Shown: positions 1-59,333 of the stretch, piece after piece
How positions within the stretch are numbered: the first letter of the stretch is position 1
Layout: each line of letters begins with the position of its first letter
From: a virus
Taxonomy: Duplodnaviria; Caudoviricetes
DNA: 64,000 nt
IMG/VR virus record: IMGVR_UViG_3300030117_007612
Coordinates: 128,001-192,000 of that record
Strand: one strand, 5' to 3'
The notes under the pieces: model-generated
Seen by the model: only the letters and a program-made list of their open reading frames with translations
The model's database searches: none
What the model was told of the DNA's origin: nothing
Translations under genes and position numbers: made by a program

Positions 1-1
1 C

Positions 2-250
2 GCCTCCTTGAATGAGCGACAAAAAAGTAAAATTGTCGAAGCTATTTCAAATGCAGGTTCAGTTGAAGAAGCGAAGGTATTATGTGAAACCCTTCAAAGC
101 ACAGTGGGTAGTACGAAAGAGAAACGTACTCCAAAATCATTGAGCGAAGCAATCGCACGACCCTCCGCAATTATAAGGGGTTCTCGTAAAGAGGAGCCCT
201 CAGACGATCCGCTGTCGGAACGTTTGAAAAGACTAGCTGGAATAAAATAA
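2..250 (+). CDS. Prohead scaffolding/core protein, C-terminal part (5' truncated by window)
   Basis: Frame is open to the window edge; lies directly upstream of the major capsid gene; helical C-terminus ending SERLKRLAGIK. Confidence 0.6.
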   Translation, partial: ASLNERQKSKIVEAISNAGSVEEAKVLCETLQSTVGSTKEKRTPKSLSEAIARPSAIIRGSRKEEPSDDPLSERLKRLAGIK

Positions 251-275
251 TAATTATTTAAGGAGGTAATTTAAA

Positions 276-2033
276 ATGTCTAGTATCGTAGAAAGATTGA
301 CCGAGGGCATGGTCAATCGTGATATGAAAAAAGAAGGTCACGCACTTCTCAAGAAGTGGGAAAAAACTGGTCTTCTTGAAGGACTGCAAGATGAGCGTAA
401 GCGCCAAAGCATGGCTCGACTTTTAGAAAATCAAGCGAAGGAACTGCTTCGTGAGGTTTCAACAATGTCGGGTGGTGATGTTGAGGGCTTTGCTGCTGTT
501 GCATTCCCAATTGTCCGCCGAGTATTCGCAGGTTTAATCGCGAATGATTTAGTATCCGTGCAGCCAATGAGCTTGCCATCGGGTCTGATCTTCTTCCTTG
601 ACTTTACTGTTTCAAACACCATTGGTGAGGGTACCAGTACAAACGGAAGATTATCATATGAGAAGAATGAGTCCATTTATGGTCAAGGAGTCGTTGGTCA
701 AGAGATCACCGGCGGTGTGTCCATGACGCTCGACGATGCTGAGGATGGGCCTTGGAACCTTAACAACGGTTACTCGTCCACCACGGCTTCTCTGTCGAAT
801 GTGACACTCGACTTCCACACCAGTGGTACTTATGGTACCGGTGATGAGGGACTCGATAAGATTCTTCGTTGGGATCTTGACCTTACTTCTGGTTCTACCA
901 GAGTTACGGTTCTTAAGTGCCCAGTTGGTAGATTGACAAGCTCTAATGGTAACGTTCTGGATGGATCCCCAGGTAATCTTCAAGCAATTACGCTTTATGA
1001 TACCAATCTCGGAACATTCAGTAAGGGTCACCAAGTGCGTCGACTGACTCAGTTCTCTGGTTCAGCACAATCACACATCTTGCTTGTTGTCGCTTCGACT
1101 GGTTCTGAAGGTTCAACGACCCAGCATGATATTACCAACTATGTCACTGGTAACACTCTTGAGGTTACTTTCCCAATTATCGATAAACTCCAAAGTGCTA
1201 CGGCCGTTGGTTCTGTTATCGGTGCAACTGATTGGGCCCTTGAAAATGAGGGTAACATCCCAGAGATCGACATTCAGGTTGGCTCAATCGCCGTGACGGC
1301 GCAGACCAAGAAGCTGAAGGCCAAGTGGACTCCGGAATTAGGACAAGATCTTAATGCCTACCACAACCTTGACGCTGAGGTCGAGCTTACTCAGATCCTT
1401 TCTGAGCAAATTGCTCTTGAGATTGATCGTGAAATTCTTGCCGATCTCGTTAATGGCGCTAAGGCTGGTAAGTACTACTGGTCGCGTTCACCCGGTATGT
1501 TCCTGAACCGCACATCCGGTGAAGAAGTTGGTGCAGCATCTGCCGCCCCTGACTTCACTGGTACTGTCAGTGAGTGGTATGAGACTCTTGTTGAGACCAT
1601 TAATGACGTGTCGGCTCAGATCCATCGCAAGACCTTAAGAGGTGGTGCTAACTTCATCGTTTGTAGCCCTGAAGTTGCTGCTATTCTTGAGTTCACTGCT
1701 GGATTCCGTGCCAATGTCACTGTTGACGGCGAAACTGGAACAGTCGGTGCTGTTAAGACTGGAAACCTTTCTAAGAAGTGGGACGTCTATGTCGATCCAT
1801 ACTTCTTGCGAAGTGTAATTCTTGTCGGCCGCAAGGGAGGAAGCTTCCTCGAAAGCGGATATGTGTACGCACCGTACGTACCACTGCAAACTACACCTAC
1901 AATCTTCGGACCAGAAGATTTCGTGCCCCGTAAGGGAGTCATGACTCGCTATGCGAAGAAGATGGTCCGACCTGATATGTACGGTCTGGTTATCGTTCGC
2001 GGTATGCTCGGAGAGTCCGGCGCAACTAGCTAA
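276..2033 (+). CDS. Major capsid protein, T4 gp23-like
   Basis: Motifs PIVRRVF..LIANDLVSVQPMSLPSGLIFFLDF, KKLKAKWTPELGQDLNAYHNLDAEVEL..ILSEQIALEIDREIL and GYVYAPYVPL; SD AAGGAGG upstream. Confidence 0.95.
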   Translation: MSSIVERLTEGMVNRDMKKEGHALLKKWEKTGLLEGLQDERKRQSMARLLENQAKELLREVSTMSGGDVEGFAAVAFPIVRRVFAGLIANDLVSVQPMSLPSGLIFFLDFTVSNTIGEGTSTNGRLSYEKNESIYGQGVVGQEITGGVSMTLDDAEDGPWNLNNGYSSTTASLSNVTLDFHTSGTYGTGDEGLDKILRWDLDLTSGSTRVTVLKCPVGRLTSSNGNVLDGSPGNLQAITLYDTNLGTFSKGHQVRRLTQFSGSAQSHILLVVASTGSEGSTTQHDITNYVTGNTLEVTFPIIDKLQSATAVGSVIGATDWALENEGNIPEIDIQVGSIAVTAQTKKLKAKWTPELGQDLNAYHNLDAEVELTQILSEQIALEIDREILADLVNGAKAGKYYWSRSPGMFLNRTSGEEVGAASAAPDFTGTVSEWYETLVETINDVSAQIHRKTLRGGANFIVCSPEVAAILEFTAGFRANVTVDGETGTVGAVKTGNLSKKWDVYVDPYFLRSVILVGRKGGSFLESGYVYAPYVPLQTTPTIFGPEDFVPRKGVMTRYAKKMVRPDMYGLVIVRGMLGESGATS

Positions 2034-2051
2034 TCGATAGCGTAGTCTAAT

Positions 2052-2090
2052 AAAAAAAGCCCCTGCTTTGAAAAAAGCAGGGGCTTTTTG
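2052..2090 (+). terminator. Intrinsic (likely bidirectional) terminator after capsid gene
   Basis: AAAAAGCCCCTGCTTT-gaaa-AAAGCAGGGGCTTTTT perfect hairpin with A and T tracts. Confidence 0.9.
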
Positions 2091-2209
2091 TGTATCTGAG
2101 GCTATGTATAAGCAGAGGGCACATCATTAATAAGTGTTCAAGTGGATACTTGAGGTGTATACCTCTATATAAACACGTTATAAATTATTAAAATAAGGAG
2201 AAATATATA

Positions 2210-57965: not shown

Positions 57966-57969
57966 TCAC

Positions 57970-57998
57970 TTGACAACCAATTAGACATTGGTTATACT
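57970..57998 (+). promoter_or_regulatory. Sigma70-type promoter
   Basis: TTGACA-N17-TATACT. Confidence 0.8.
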
Positions 57999-58042
57999 AT
58001 ATACTTGGTAGGCTTTATGCTCTATCAAATGGAGAACAATAA

Positions 58043-58384
58043 ATGGAAAACAATGATCCAAAAACAACAGAGGAAGATTCGCCCGAAGCTGCCGAACTTA
58101 AACCAAAACCACCACCAAAATTGGCCCCGCGCGGCATTCGTACATTTACCGTGTGTCGCCAAAGCGACGAGACGGGTGTGTCCGGTGAGGGCGTGGTAAT
58201 CGAAGGAGTTGAATTGGCTTCAGGTCACTGTATCATTCACTGGCTATATCCACCACCGAGAGGAGGTATTGCAATTTTTGATTCTCTCGGTGATTTCCTG
58301 AAAGTTCACGTCCTCCCCCATCCCGATAATAAAACAATATTCACATTTGAAGATGGCGAGCAAATTACATATCCAACCAACTAA
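58043..58384 (+). CDS. Hypothetical protein
   Basis: SD GGAG; 113 aa. Confidence 0.75.
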   Translation: MENNDPKTTEEDSPEAAELKPKPPPKLAPRGIRTFTVCRQSDETGVSGEGVVIEGVELASGHCIIHWLYPPPRGGIAIFDSLGDFLKVHVLPHPDNKTIFTFEDGEQITYPTN

Positions 58385-58387
58385 TTA
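58380..58387 (+). promoter_or_regulatory. Putative late-promoter motif ACTAATTA
   Basis: 17 nt before ATG 58404. Confidence 0.55.
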
Positions 58388-58403
58388 CTACAGAGGTTAG
58401 AAT

Positions 58404-59333
58404 ATGAACGATGTCATATGGGATGATTTCTTAACAACAATTGATGAAATATCCAAATATCAAAAGAGGGTGAGAAAGGGACATAAAAAAAAGAAAGCCA
58501 TGTATGTATCTGGTGGTAAACAAAAAAATACCCCACCTTTTACAAAGCGAGCTAGCACAAGTAGATCTAAGAGCGCGCCCGGCGGTTTTGGGGCGCTTGA
58601 GGAAGTTGCGCCTGAAGACGTGACCGTCGACGGATTTGACACGCAGGACGAACTGGCGCCATCTCTGTGGGATAATAAAAAGCTACTCCCTGAAGTTAGG
58701 GAAAGGCTCTTACAGATAGCACAAGACTTTATTGATAGCCTTGAAATGGGAATAAATATAATCGATGTGAGACTAACTGGCTCATTAGCCAACTATAACT
58801 GGTCAAAATATTCTGATGTTGATTTACACATTGTTGTTGACTTTGCGACAATTGATGATAACACTGAAATCGTGAAGGGCTTCTTTGACGCTAAAAGAGT
58901 TAATTGGAACTACTCGCATGAGATTATGATTGATCAATATGAAGTTGAAATATATGTTGAAGATGATGATGAAGATCATATCTCAACCGGCATCTATTCG
59001 GTCACCAACGACAAGTGGACGATTGAGCCCGGCCCTAGCGAACAGATTTTTGAAATTGACGAGGGAAATGTTAAGAAAAAAGCAGCATCGATAATGACGC
59101 AGATCGAATTTGCCGAAGATGAGATGGAGGAAGATCCCAAAAAAGCATACGAAATGTCAGACCGACTGAAAGAGAAGATCAGAAACATGCGCGCTAGCGG
59201 ATTGAAAACTTCACAGGGTCAGTATTCAATAGAAAACGTAGCCTTCAAGGTTCTGAGACGCACAGACTACCTTCAGAGATTGTCTGATTTAAAAACAAAG
59301 TCGTACGATAAAATGATGTCGATGGAGCAATGA
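58404..59333 (+). CDS. Pol-beta-superfamily nucleotidyltransferase
   Basis: LTGSLANYNWSKYSDVDLHIVVD (GS..DxD) and VEIYVED. Confidence 0.8.
   Translation: MNDVIWDDFLTTIDEISKYQKRVRKGHKKKKAMYVSGGKQKNTPPFTKRASTSRSKSAPGGFGALEEVAPEDVTVDGFDTQDELAPSLWDNKKLLPEVRERLLQIAQDFIDSLEMGINIIDVRLTGSLANYNWSKYSDVDLHIVVDFATIDDNTEIVKGFFDAKRVNWNYSHEIMIDQYEVEIYVEDDDEDHISTGIYSVTNDKWTIEPGPSEQIFEIDEGNVKKKAASIMTQIEFAEDEMEEDPKKAYEMSDRLKEKIRNMRASGLKTSQGQYSIENVAFKVLRRTDYLQRLSDLKTKSYDKMMSMEQ

Follow-up and report, generated by a model that had tools for sequence, protein, structure and literature searches.

Excess of zero-spacer, G/C-clamped palindromes in a marine jumbo phage genome and a compartment poor in them

The phage genome and the two motifs

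The stretch of viral DNA analyzed in this study (64,000 bases, hereafter the window) corresponds to bases 128,001-192,000 of the IMG/VR virus record IMGVR_UViG_3300030117_007612 and is rich in the six-base palindromes GCCGGC and GGCGCC. The whole record (G000) comprised 203,368 bases with a G+C content of 42.2%, its completeness was 100% according to CheckV, and no repeats were found at the ends of the record. It represents a jumbo myovirus with a major head protein, two tail-sheath paralogues, a DnaB helicase, a ribonucleotide reductase, a DnaE-type polymerase and GroEL, and 205 of its 222 open reading frames (ORFs) lie on the + strand. No cultured relative was found, as a DNA search of 50,697 phage records returned no match, and the best identity of the DnaE polymerase to any phage record was at most 31%. 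Marine metagenomes from several studies (public runs) contained this phage. On the basis of the capsid protein, 486 relatives were present in IMG/VR, of which five large contigs (G001-G005) were taken whole, and 48 related loci were used for site counts. G001 belongs to the same species as G000 (96-98.5% identity across 87.6-191.6 kb of the latter), and the capsid proteins of G002 to G005 were about 62-65% identical to that of G000. According to the distribution of the sites, the genome was divided into a palindrome-rich body of 183 kb (genome 5,389-188,492) and a palindrome-poor compartment, which runs from window position 60493 to genome 203,368 and further covers genome 1-5,388. The features discussed below are listed in Table 1.

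Table 1. Positions of the sites and genes discussed in the text (window coordinates unless stated otherwise)
Feature	Position	Strand	Remark
Palindrome-rich body, part in the window	1..60492		50 GCCGGC, 38 GGCGCC, 27 CGGCCG, 1 CCWGG, 0 CTCGAG/GAGCTC/CCTNAGG
Major head protein gene	276-2,033	+
Sole CCWGG (CCAGG) of the 203-kb genome	969..973		Inside the major head protein gene
Nested palindromes	20164..20175		GGCGCC, GCCGGC and GGCGCC overlapping within 12 bases; codes Gly-Ala-Gly-Ala
Dam-family (PF05869) DNA N6-adenine methyltransferase	40692..41186	+	E = 3.5e-33; only clear phage DNA methyltransferase
ORF with sub-threshold D12-class adenine methyltransferase match	51315..52082	+	16.9 bits (cut-off 22); not a cytosine enzyme
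Last GCCGGC of the genome record	54137..54142
Last GGCGCC of the genome record	58655..58660
tRNA-Leu(UAA), tRNA-Lys(UUU), tRNA-Met(CAU)	59863..60891	+	Border of body and compartment
MgtC-family protein with ACT domain	60135-60815	+	At the compartment border
Last CGGCCG	60487..60492		Operational boundary of body and compartment
Start of the compartment	60493..64000		0 GCCGGC/GGCGCC/CGGCCG; small orphan ORFs on mixed strands; G+C 0.45-0.55
MoxR-like AAA_5 ATPase and adjacent DUF2201 metallopeptidase/VWA protein	L117:16256-18649 (genome 199,624-202,017)		G+C 0.54

The G+C content of the window was 43.0%, from which 6.3 copies of each motif are expected by base composition. A preliminary description of the stretch had reported about 45 GCCGGC and more than 30 GGCGCC, and the exact counts were even somewhat higher, namely 50 and 38, respectively. 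The nested forms that it pointed out were also found, with 5 copies of GCCGGCGCC and 3 copies of GGCGCCGGC, and the last copies lay close to where it had placed them (about 54.15 kb for GCCGGC and about 58.7 kb for both motifs).

The contribution of coding to these counts was considerable. Codon-based nulls were chosen because Markov nulls of orders 0-4, which were dropped, absorb the signal into overlapping words at the high orders. When synonymous codons were shuffled within each gene, keeping the proteins and the codon usage, the window expectation was 20.2 ± 4.0 for GCCGGC and 16.7 ± 3.7 for GGCGCC, and shuffling inside 50-codon blocks gave 26.1 and 22.9, respectively. The observed counts were reached by none of 300 shuffles under either null. 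Genome-wide, 182 GCCGGC were present compared with about 57 in the codon null, and 121 GGCGCC compared with about 50. Of the eightfold raw excess, about one third can be put down to amino-acid and codon usage, and a 2.4-3.2-fold excess was left after the protein- and codon-preserving null.

The motifs had been described as occurring in all reading frames. About 75% of the copies in the window were in-frame (39 of 50 as GCC-GGC for Ala-Gly and 28 of 38 as GGC-GCC for Gly-Ala), so the copies themselves were unevenly distributed, but the excess was present in every frame. The genome-wide numbers of GCCGGC in frames 0, 1 and 2 were 143, 12 and 23 compared with expectations of 45.6, 1.8 and 6.1, and the frame-1 copies require the rare Arg codon CGG. 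Frames 1 and 2 showed 3.8-6.9 times the synonymous null and 1.5-1.7 times the dicodon null. The latter was a genome-wide Euler codon shuffle that keeps each dicodon count and by design leaves frame 0 unchanged; copies in the other two frames exceeded it (35 versus 20.9 and 27 versus 18.5, reached by none of 100 shuffles), and palindromic 8-mers were about twofold over it. The out-of-frame enrichment thus persisted under the codon- and dicodon-preserving nulls that the preliminary description had proposed as the decisive check. Because the excess occurs in all frames and survives the dicodon null, it is not reducible to Ala-Gly/Gly-Ala codon pairing. GCC-GGC was the most over-represented codon pair of the genome (143 versus 45) and GGC-GCC the third (92 versus 38), and in the body the palindromic pair was used for 40% of the Ala-Gly and 30% of the Gly-Ala dipeptides.

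The palindrome class, its turnover and the excluded sites

Among 533 restriction sites ranked against the synonymous null over the whole genome, GCCGGC was the most enriched (z = 16), followed by CGCCGGCG, CCGG and CCSGG, and then by GGCCGGCC, GCCCGGGC and GGCGCC; GCTAGC and CGGCCG were enriched as well. The signal was specific to the hexamer, as GCCGGC had an observed/expected ratio of 3.20 compared with 1.01 for ACCGGC/GCCGGT and 0.98 for TCCGGC/GCCGGA. A CCGGC or CCGG core as the target was ruled out by the same comparison, with ACCGGC, TCCGGC and their complements at 1.0. The excess extended symmetrically to palindromic 8-mers, of which CGCCGGCG was found 36 times versus about 5.6 in the codon null, GGCCGGCC 12 times versus about 1, TGCCGGCA 27 times versus 6.7, CGGCGCCG 26 times versus 3.8 and GCCCGGGC 13 times versus about 1.4-1.6. 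In addition, palindromic flanks were present at 43% of the GCCGGC copies and at 27% in the null.

The excess grew with the length and the G+C content of the palindromes. For maximal perfect palindromes in the body with arms of 3, 4, 5, 6 and at least 7 bases, the observed/expected ratios were 1.09, 1.34, 1.68, 1.86 and 2.05, respectively, and those with all-G/C cores reached 2.07, 3.47, 4.32, 4.82 and 6.45. With the same null, the relative G002 gave 0.9-1.0 at arms of 3-6 bases and 16 copies versus 11.1 at arms of at least 7. Moreover, G/C-rich arms of five bases were 5.6-fold enriched at spacer 0 compared with 0.95-1.64-fold at spacers 1-12, and in G002 the spacer-0 value was under its own baseline. 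Since the excess is limited to zero spacer, neither hairpins nor RNA structure nor mere patchiness of G+C can be its cause, and the limitation points to the two-fold symmetry of duplex DNA.

With regard to the half-sites (S = G/C, W = A/T), SSS was enriched 2.25-fold and SSW 1.56-fold, and half-sites with an outermost A/T stayed at about 1.0. The enriched class is therefore SSNNSS, with G/C at both outer positions, and its SSW members include GCTAGC, CCTAGG, GCATGC, CCATGG and GGTACC. At least 13 distinct palindromic hexamers were enriched 1.5-3.2-fold, and no single motif was dominant. GCCGGC and GGCGCC are the most visible because Ala-Gly and Gly-Ala, which are common dipeptides, can be encoded by them. 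They mark the maximum of a genome-wide signal, an excess of uninterrupted perfect palindromes that was confined to about 90% of the sequence. At the four-fold degenerate sites of the whole genome, the wobble base before GG was C in 36% of cases in G000/G001 compared with 14-15% in G002/G004, in which T accounted for 51%, and the reverse complement context (C before CG) showed the same wobble shift.

The individual sites turned over at a neutral pace. Between G000 and G001, which differ by 2.0%, 90 GCCGGC were shared, 8 were unique to one strain and 12 to the other. This turnover of 10% can be compared with about 11.7% expected for neutral sites from the measured single-nucleotide polymorphism rates per codon position, and GCCGGC ranked only 502nd of 559 common hexamers in its conservation between the strains. 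The differences were about balanced (8 and 12 for GCCGGC, 10 and 4 for GGCGCC), and many of the changes were non-synonymous. Furthermore, the placement of sites among the available Ala-Gly/Gly-Ala dipeptides was random, and no regular spacing, clustering or periodicity beyond the distribution of these dipeptides was found in the body. The suggestion of the preliminary description that the motifs might be binding sites for genome organization therefore did not hold for fixed sites, which are unlikely in view of the neutral turnover between 98%-identical strains and the random placement. The heterogeneity among genes in the use of the palindromic pair was modest (chi-square 43 on 24 degrees of freedom). 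In the major head protein gene, none of nine Ala-Gly/Gly-Ala dipeptides used the palindromic pair, compared with 38% overall.

Four sites showed the opposite behaviour and were nearly or completely excluded from the genome. Compared with the codon null, there was 1 CCWGG versus 240 expected, 0 GAGCTC versus 27, 0 CTCGAG versus 23 and 0 CCTNAGG versus 21. CCWGG, the EcoRII/Dcm site, was also absent from G001, and G002 to G005 had 37-248 copies, so that its exclusion (0-1 versus 117-247 expected) was found only in G000/G001. The codon pairs CCA-GGN and CCT-GGN occurred in 0-1 copies; the exclusion of CCWGG thus pushes Pro-Gly into CCC/CCG followed by GGN, and the excess of CCC-GGC and CCG-GGC is a by-product. 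The same explanation was rejected for GCC-GGC, since no forbidden site overlaps the Ala-Gly alternatives. CTCGAG, GAGCTC and CCTNAGG were almost absent from all six large genomes (one CCTNAGG in G004) and from almost all of the 48 loci, with 6-27 copies expected per site per genome and 2, 0 and 3 copies found over all loci, respectively. That this avoidance is kept across capsids about 62% identical suggests a long-lived pressure, which might come from the host, through a conserved system, or from the phages, through a nuclease of their own.

The relatives differed widely in their palindromes. GCCGGC and GGCGCC switched between states, with many lineages having none and others about 2.1-2.3 times the expectation. 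G004 had 0 GCCGGC versus 7.4 expected, and G005 had 0 versus 9.8 and 0 versus 10.7 for the two motifs. The other enriched lineages together had 76 versus 35.9 and 73 versus 32.1, with the neighbouring sequences near 1.0, and in some lineages one motif was enriched and the other absent. These states were scattered on the capsid tree, with 14 changes over 48 tips. The G000 body and enriched lineages that are phylogenetically distinct from it had correlated palindrome profiles (rho = 0.58, p = 7e-7). In G003 and G005, GGCC was nearly excluded (14 versus 150 and 10 versus 122), most G/C-rich hexamer palindromes were missing, and up to about ten six-base palindromes were wholly absent from each. 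An anticorrelation between the palindromes enriched here and those avoided in the relatives was looked for and was not observed (rho = 0.06).

The palindrome-poor compartment

The region without the two motifs at the end of the window, noted in the preliminary description, was real and larger than it had appeared, extending over 20.3 kb across the ends of the record. The longest gap without GCCGGC, GGCGCC or CGGCCG ran from genome position 188,487 to the record end, and the second longest was formed by the first 5,388 bases. Together the three motifs had 0 copies in the compartment versus 11.9 expected under a plain, non-enriched null. The effect was not limited to these sites, as 27 of the 64 palindromic hexamers were missing, compared with 2.4 on average and never more than 6 in the null. 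In total, 189 palindromic hexamers were present in the compartment versus 287 expected (z = -8), compared with 3,754 versus 3,158 (z = +12) in the body, which corresponds to observed/expected ratios of 0.66 and 1.19, respectively. Small genes outside the compartment were still enriched 2.0-2.3-fold, indicating that the effect is regional.

The G+C content of the compartment, at 0.45-0.55, exceeded that of the body. The ORFs of the compartment were small, on mixed strands and mostly without a family match. PHROG and Pfam scans of 13 of them gave only one zinc-finger match, which was below the cut-off; a separate Pfam scan revealed the MgtC protein and the pair of AAA_5 and DUF2201 genes. The three tRNAs at the border read A/T-ending codons favoured in the body. 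The number of predicted sigma-70-like promoters was 40 versus 22 expected, and many of them had an extended -10 element. In L117:10579-19448 (+), which belongs to the compartment, a series of promoter-like sites consisted of TTGACy, a 16-17-base spacer and TG-n-TATATT, and the TG of the extended -10 element occurred in no promoter-like site of a 15-kb sample of the body. In the assembled contigs of the public runs, the depth was flat over the last 20 kb, and no termini were visible; one contig extended about 100 bases beyond the record end. The G+C-rich AAA_5/DUF2201 genes were also used in an attempt to identify the host, which was abandoned because the matches were short contigs in marine metagenome-assembled genomes of five phyla, most likely mis-binned phage.

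Away from the compartment, the two paralogous tail-sheath proteins, each with about 1,000 residues, are encoded next to each other in the window (6132-9161 and 9289-12261, +), and their sheath-family match is confined to the C-terminal third.

Origin of the excess and comparison with known systems

The preliminary description had proposed a modification or repair process encoded by the phage or its host. The DNA-level excess on which this idea was built is real, but a cognate enzyme in the phage and the expected repair trace were not found. In the 203-kb genome there was no C5 methyltransferase (PF00145), N4/N6 methyltransferase (PF01555), N6_Mtase (PF02384) or Vsr (PF03852), and the base hypermodification genes TGT/DpdA (PF01702) and ThyA family (PF00303) were absent as well. 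The Dam-family enzyme (Table 1) cannot act inside GCCGGC or GGCGCC, since these motifs contain no adenine. GATC was not depleted genome-wide (854 versus 816). As a trace of very-short-patch repair, a transition-specific depletion of one-off neighbours was sought over the whole genome and was not found; the ratio of GCTGGC/GCCAGC was 0.77 compared with 0.74 for the transversion neighbours, and that of GGTGCC/GGCACC was 0.88. Variants at the outer positions were at 1.0 and those at the central positions (GCWGGC/GCCWGC) at 0.75, a modest effect that is not transition-specific. In addition, a palindrome class that grows with length fits poorly with one methyltransferase per site.

An ordinary coding effect, in the form of Ala-Gly/Gly-Ala codon-pair bias or local patches of G/C-ending codons without any DNA-level meaning, would agree with the in-frame position of about three quarters of the copies, with the rise of the window expectation from 6.3 to about 20 when amino-acid and codon usage are considered, with the 1.49-fold enrichment of non-palindromic all-G/C hexamers and with the wobble C before GG (0.36 here versus 0.14 in relatives). 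However, all three frames show the excess, the 50-codon-block and dicodon-preserving nulls were survived, the signal is specific to the full hexamer and limited to spacer 0, and the main non-palindromic neighbour CCC-GGC results from the avoidance of CCWGG. A pure coding effect is essentially excluded, and we regard it as very improbable. The motifs might also be selected because a dimeric protein, encoded by the phage or co-injected, binds or loads there for compaction, protection, replication or packaging, with selection on the number of sites and not on their position, and with the sites kept out of the early compartment. The strict two-fold symmetry with zero spacer and symmetric 8-mer extension, the density of about one GCCGGC per kb throughout the body with none in the compartment, and the use of the rare codon CGG for out-of-frame copies would be in agreement with such sites. 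Nevertheless, the enriched sequences are too many and unrelated for one recognition site, gains and losses between the strains are about equal at a neutral turnover, placement among the dipeptides is random and without periodicity, and the major head protein gene has no palindromic pair in its nine dipeptides. Selected sites are accordingly quite unlikely in our view.

A host-driven process of the kind proposed by Elhai for the highly iterated palindromes (HIPs) of cyanobacteria deserves more weight, although we still consider it rather unlikely. Orphan methyltransferases of the host would mark GCCGGC, GGCGCC and other sites, and methyl-directed or very-short-patch repair would convert near-cognate sequences to sites during phage replication. 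Both hexamers are alternate HIPs of two cyanobacteria (PMC4390886), the depleted-or-enriched pattern of HIP sites is mirrored by the absent-or-enriched states in the phage family, all four GCNNGC palindromes were enriched, and the central variants GCWGGC/GCCWGC were mildly depleted (0.75). These points are opposed by the lack of a cytosine methyltransferase and Vsr in the phage, by a neighbour depletion that is not transition-specific, and by the large number of enriched palindromes, some of them without a GC dinucleotide (CCTAGG, CCATGG, GGTACC and CCCGGG), with an excess that grows with length. Moreover, the same profile was found in lineages with different avoidance sets, presumably with different hosts, and a compartment of the same genome is without the sites. 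For this compartment, the absence of the motifs had been taken as a possible mark of recently acquired DNA. A recent import from a palindrome-avoiding relative or host would explain why G+C and codon usage differ (G+C at third codon positions 0.49 versus 0.39 in the body; Arg CGC 0.31 versus 0.17), and most of the sampled relatives are without these sites. On the other hand, Ala and Gly codon usage is equal in compartment and body, and the compartment has 0 CCWGG versus 28 expected, as in the body but unlike most relatives. The AAA_5 and DUF2201 genes are family-core genes kept in G002 and G004 at 65-72% identity, like the rest of the genome, and no high-identity donor was found among the relatives. 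G002 and G004 also share the same palindrome-poor, small-ORF end region (observed/expected 0.73 and 0.69). The earlier view was thus right in recognizing a distinct region, but the region appears from these comparisons to be conserved and not a demonstrable recent import, which is unlikely.

The explanation that we favour, and which we consider quite possible but somewhat short of probable, is a bias of substitution or repair that acts on the DNA itself with two-fold symmetry and is overridden by selection where restriction matters. We infer that the cause is such a mutation or repair bias and not selection on the sites, and that the bias belongs to the phage and not to its host. It would act during phage replication, turning near-palindromes into perfect G/C-clamped palindromes, and it would run almost unopposed across the 183-kb body, probably because most of the type II restriction pressure is absent or neutralized there. 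Restriction-type selection might override it genome-wide for CCWGG, CTCGAG, GAGCTC and CCTNAGG, within the 20-kb compartment of small genes for many sites, and for individual sites in related phage lineages. The compartment may differ because its DNA is exposed at a stage when protection is not yet established, or because it is exchanged frequently among phages of many hosts. A more specific proposal is rather doubtful, namely that this lineage has an intrinsic 'palindromizing' replication or repair bias with a steady output of perfect, G/C-clamped palindromes, and that it tolerates them since most of its genome is protected against type II restriction once a palindrome-free, pre-early compartment of 20 kb has acted. 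On this view, the genome would show an unopposed mutation bias and full restriction selection side by side.

Several points weigh against this bias. Zero-spacer palindromes of 6-8 bp with outer G/C are not the product of any process known to us. In a simple strand-switch model, stability should matter at the inner positions, yet palindromes with an A/T exterior and a G/C interior showed no enrichment. In the other enriched lineages, the preference for zero spacer was weak (1.33 versus 1.08-1.26), and G002 has the replication genes of the family yet no excess, so that the bias is not a fixed family property. Furthermore, the body excludes four sites completely and is therefore not generally shielded. 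A host-driven, methylation-linked process is possible.

Phages are a textbook case of palindrome avoidance, and the unexplained cyanobacterial HIPs have so far been the main example of a positive force on palindromes. The length-dependent, zero-spacer excess shows such a force outside cyanobacteria. The phage also offers a simpler study system, with 203 kb, no cytosine methyltransferase of its own, hundreds of site-switching relatives and several public marine data sets, and the 183-kb palindrome-rich body and the 20-kb compartment without 27 of the 64 palindromic hexamers provide a built-in control. The HIP question thereby becomes testable through methylome reads and polarized polymorphism, and the contrast between body and compartment hints at a T5-type protection strategy in an unrelated marine jumbo phage.

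The excess can be compared with a mutational process that is reportedly known from phage T4 and E. coli, namely quasi-palindrome-templated (template-switch) mutagenesis, which is said to go back to the model of Ripley and later work of Lovett's group. It would provide a route from imperfect to perfect inverted repeats, with an excess growing with arm length and G+C content, as observed here. The known events, however, have longer arms and usually a loop, compared with zero spacer and arms of 3-7 bases in this genome, and G/C is required here at the outer and not at the inner positions.

The resemblance to cyanobacterial HIPs raised in the preliminary description was borne out by the literature, in that the alternate HIPs include both hexamers. 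HIP1 of cyanobacteria is GCGATCGC (Elhai 2015, PMC4390886), and the alternate HIPs are GGCGCC in Calothrix PCC 7103, rCCGGy (including GCCGGC) in Oscillatoria PCC 10802 and GCsGC in Cyanothece PCC 7822 (PMC4390886). Among the genomes with a cognate methyltransferase, the sites were depleted in most and strongly enriched in a few (PMC4390886). Like HIPs, the phage sites are short, G/C-clamped perfect palindromes with an excess whatever the frame, and one site is depleted or enriched among related genomes. The over-representation of HIPs, like that proposed here, is thought to be a side-product of a DNA process and not a selected function. Unlike in cyanobacteria, the sites are those of a virus without its own cognate cytosine methyltransferase, and an SSNNSS class rising with palindrome length takes the place of one dominant motif. 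The enrichment is also lower, with 2-6 times the codon null and 8 times the base composition compared with 15 times and more, and one compartment of the same phage genome shows the opposite trend.

Restriction-site avoidance has been described in phages and archaeal viruses (e.g., Rusinov et al. 2018, PMC6286503), and in the HF1-group haloviruses 21 six-base palindromes are absent family-wide (PMC7230728). The avoidance of four sites genome-wide in this phage, that of CTCGAG, GAGCTC and CCTNAGG family-wide and the lack of 27 of the 64 hexamers in the compartment are in agreement with these findings. However, the remaining 183 kb are palindrome-rich, most of all for the G/C-rich palindromes avoided by relatives. 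In T5-like phages, restriction takes hold only when sites are present in the DNA of the first-step transfer (PMC10644984; Davison and Brunel 1979 as cited there). As in these phages, a small site-sensitive region of small pre-early-type genes stands next to a large site-tolerant remainder; in the present genome, the compartment spans the record ends and contains small orphan ORFs as well as additional sigma-70-like promoters. Two-step injection and terminal repeats, however, are features of T5, whereas the compartment is known from the sequence and the contig depth is flat; the body of T5 has not been reported as palindrome-enriched, and four sites are still wholly excluded from the body of the present phage. 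By analogy, the T5 precedent offers a possible mechanism for the compartment, for which frequent exchange of the region among phages is the alternative.

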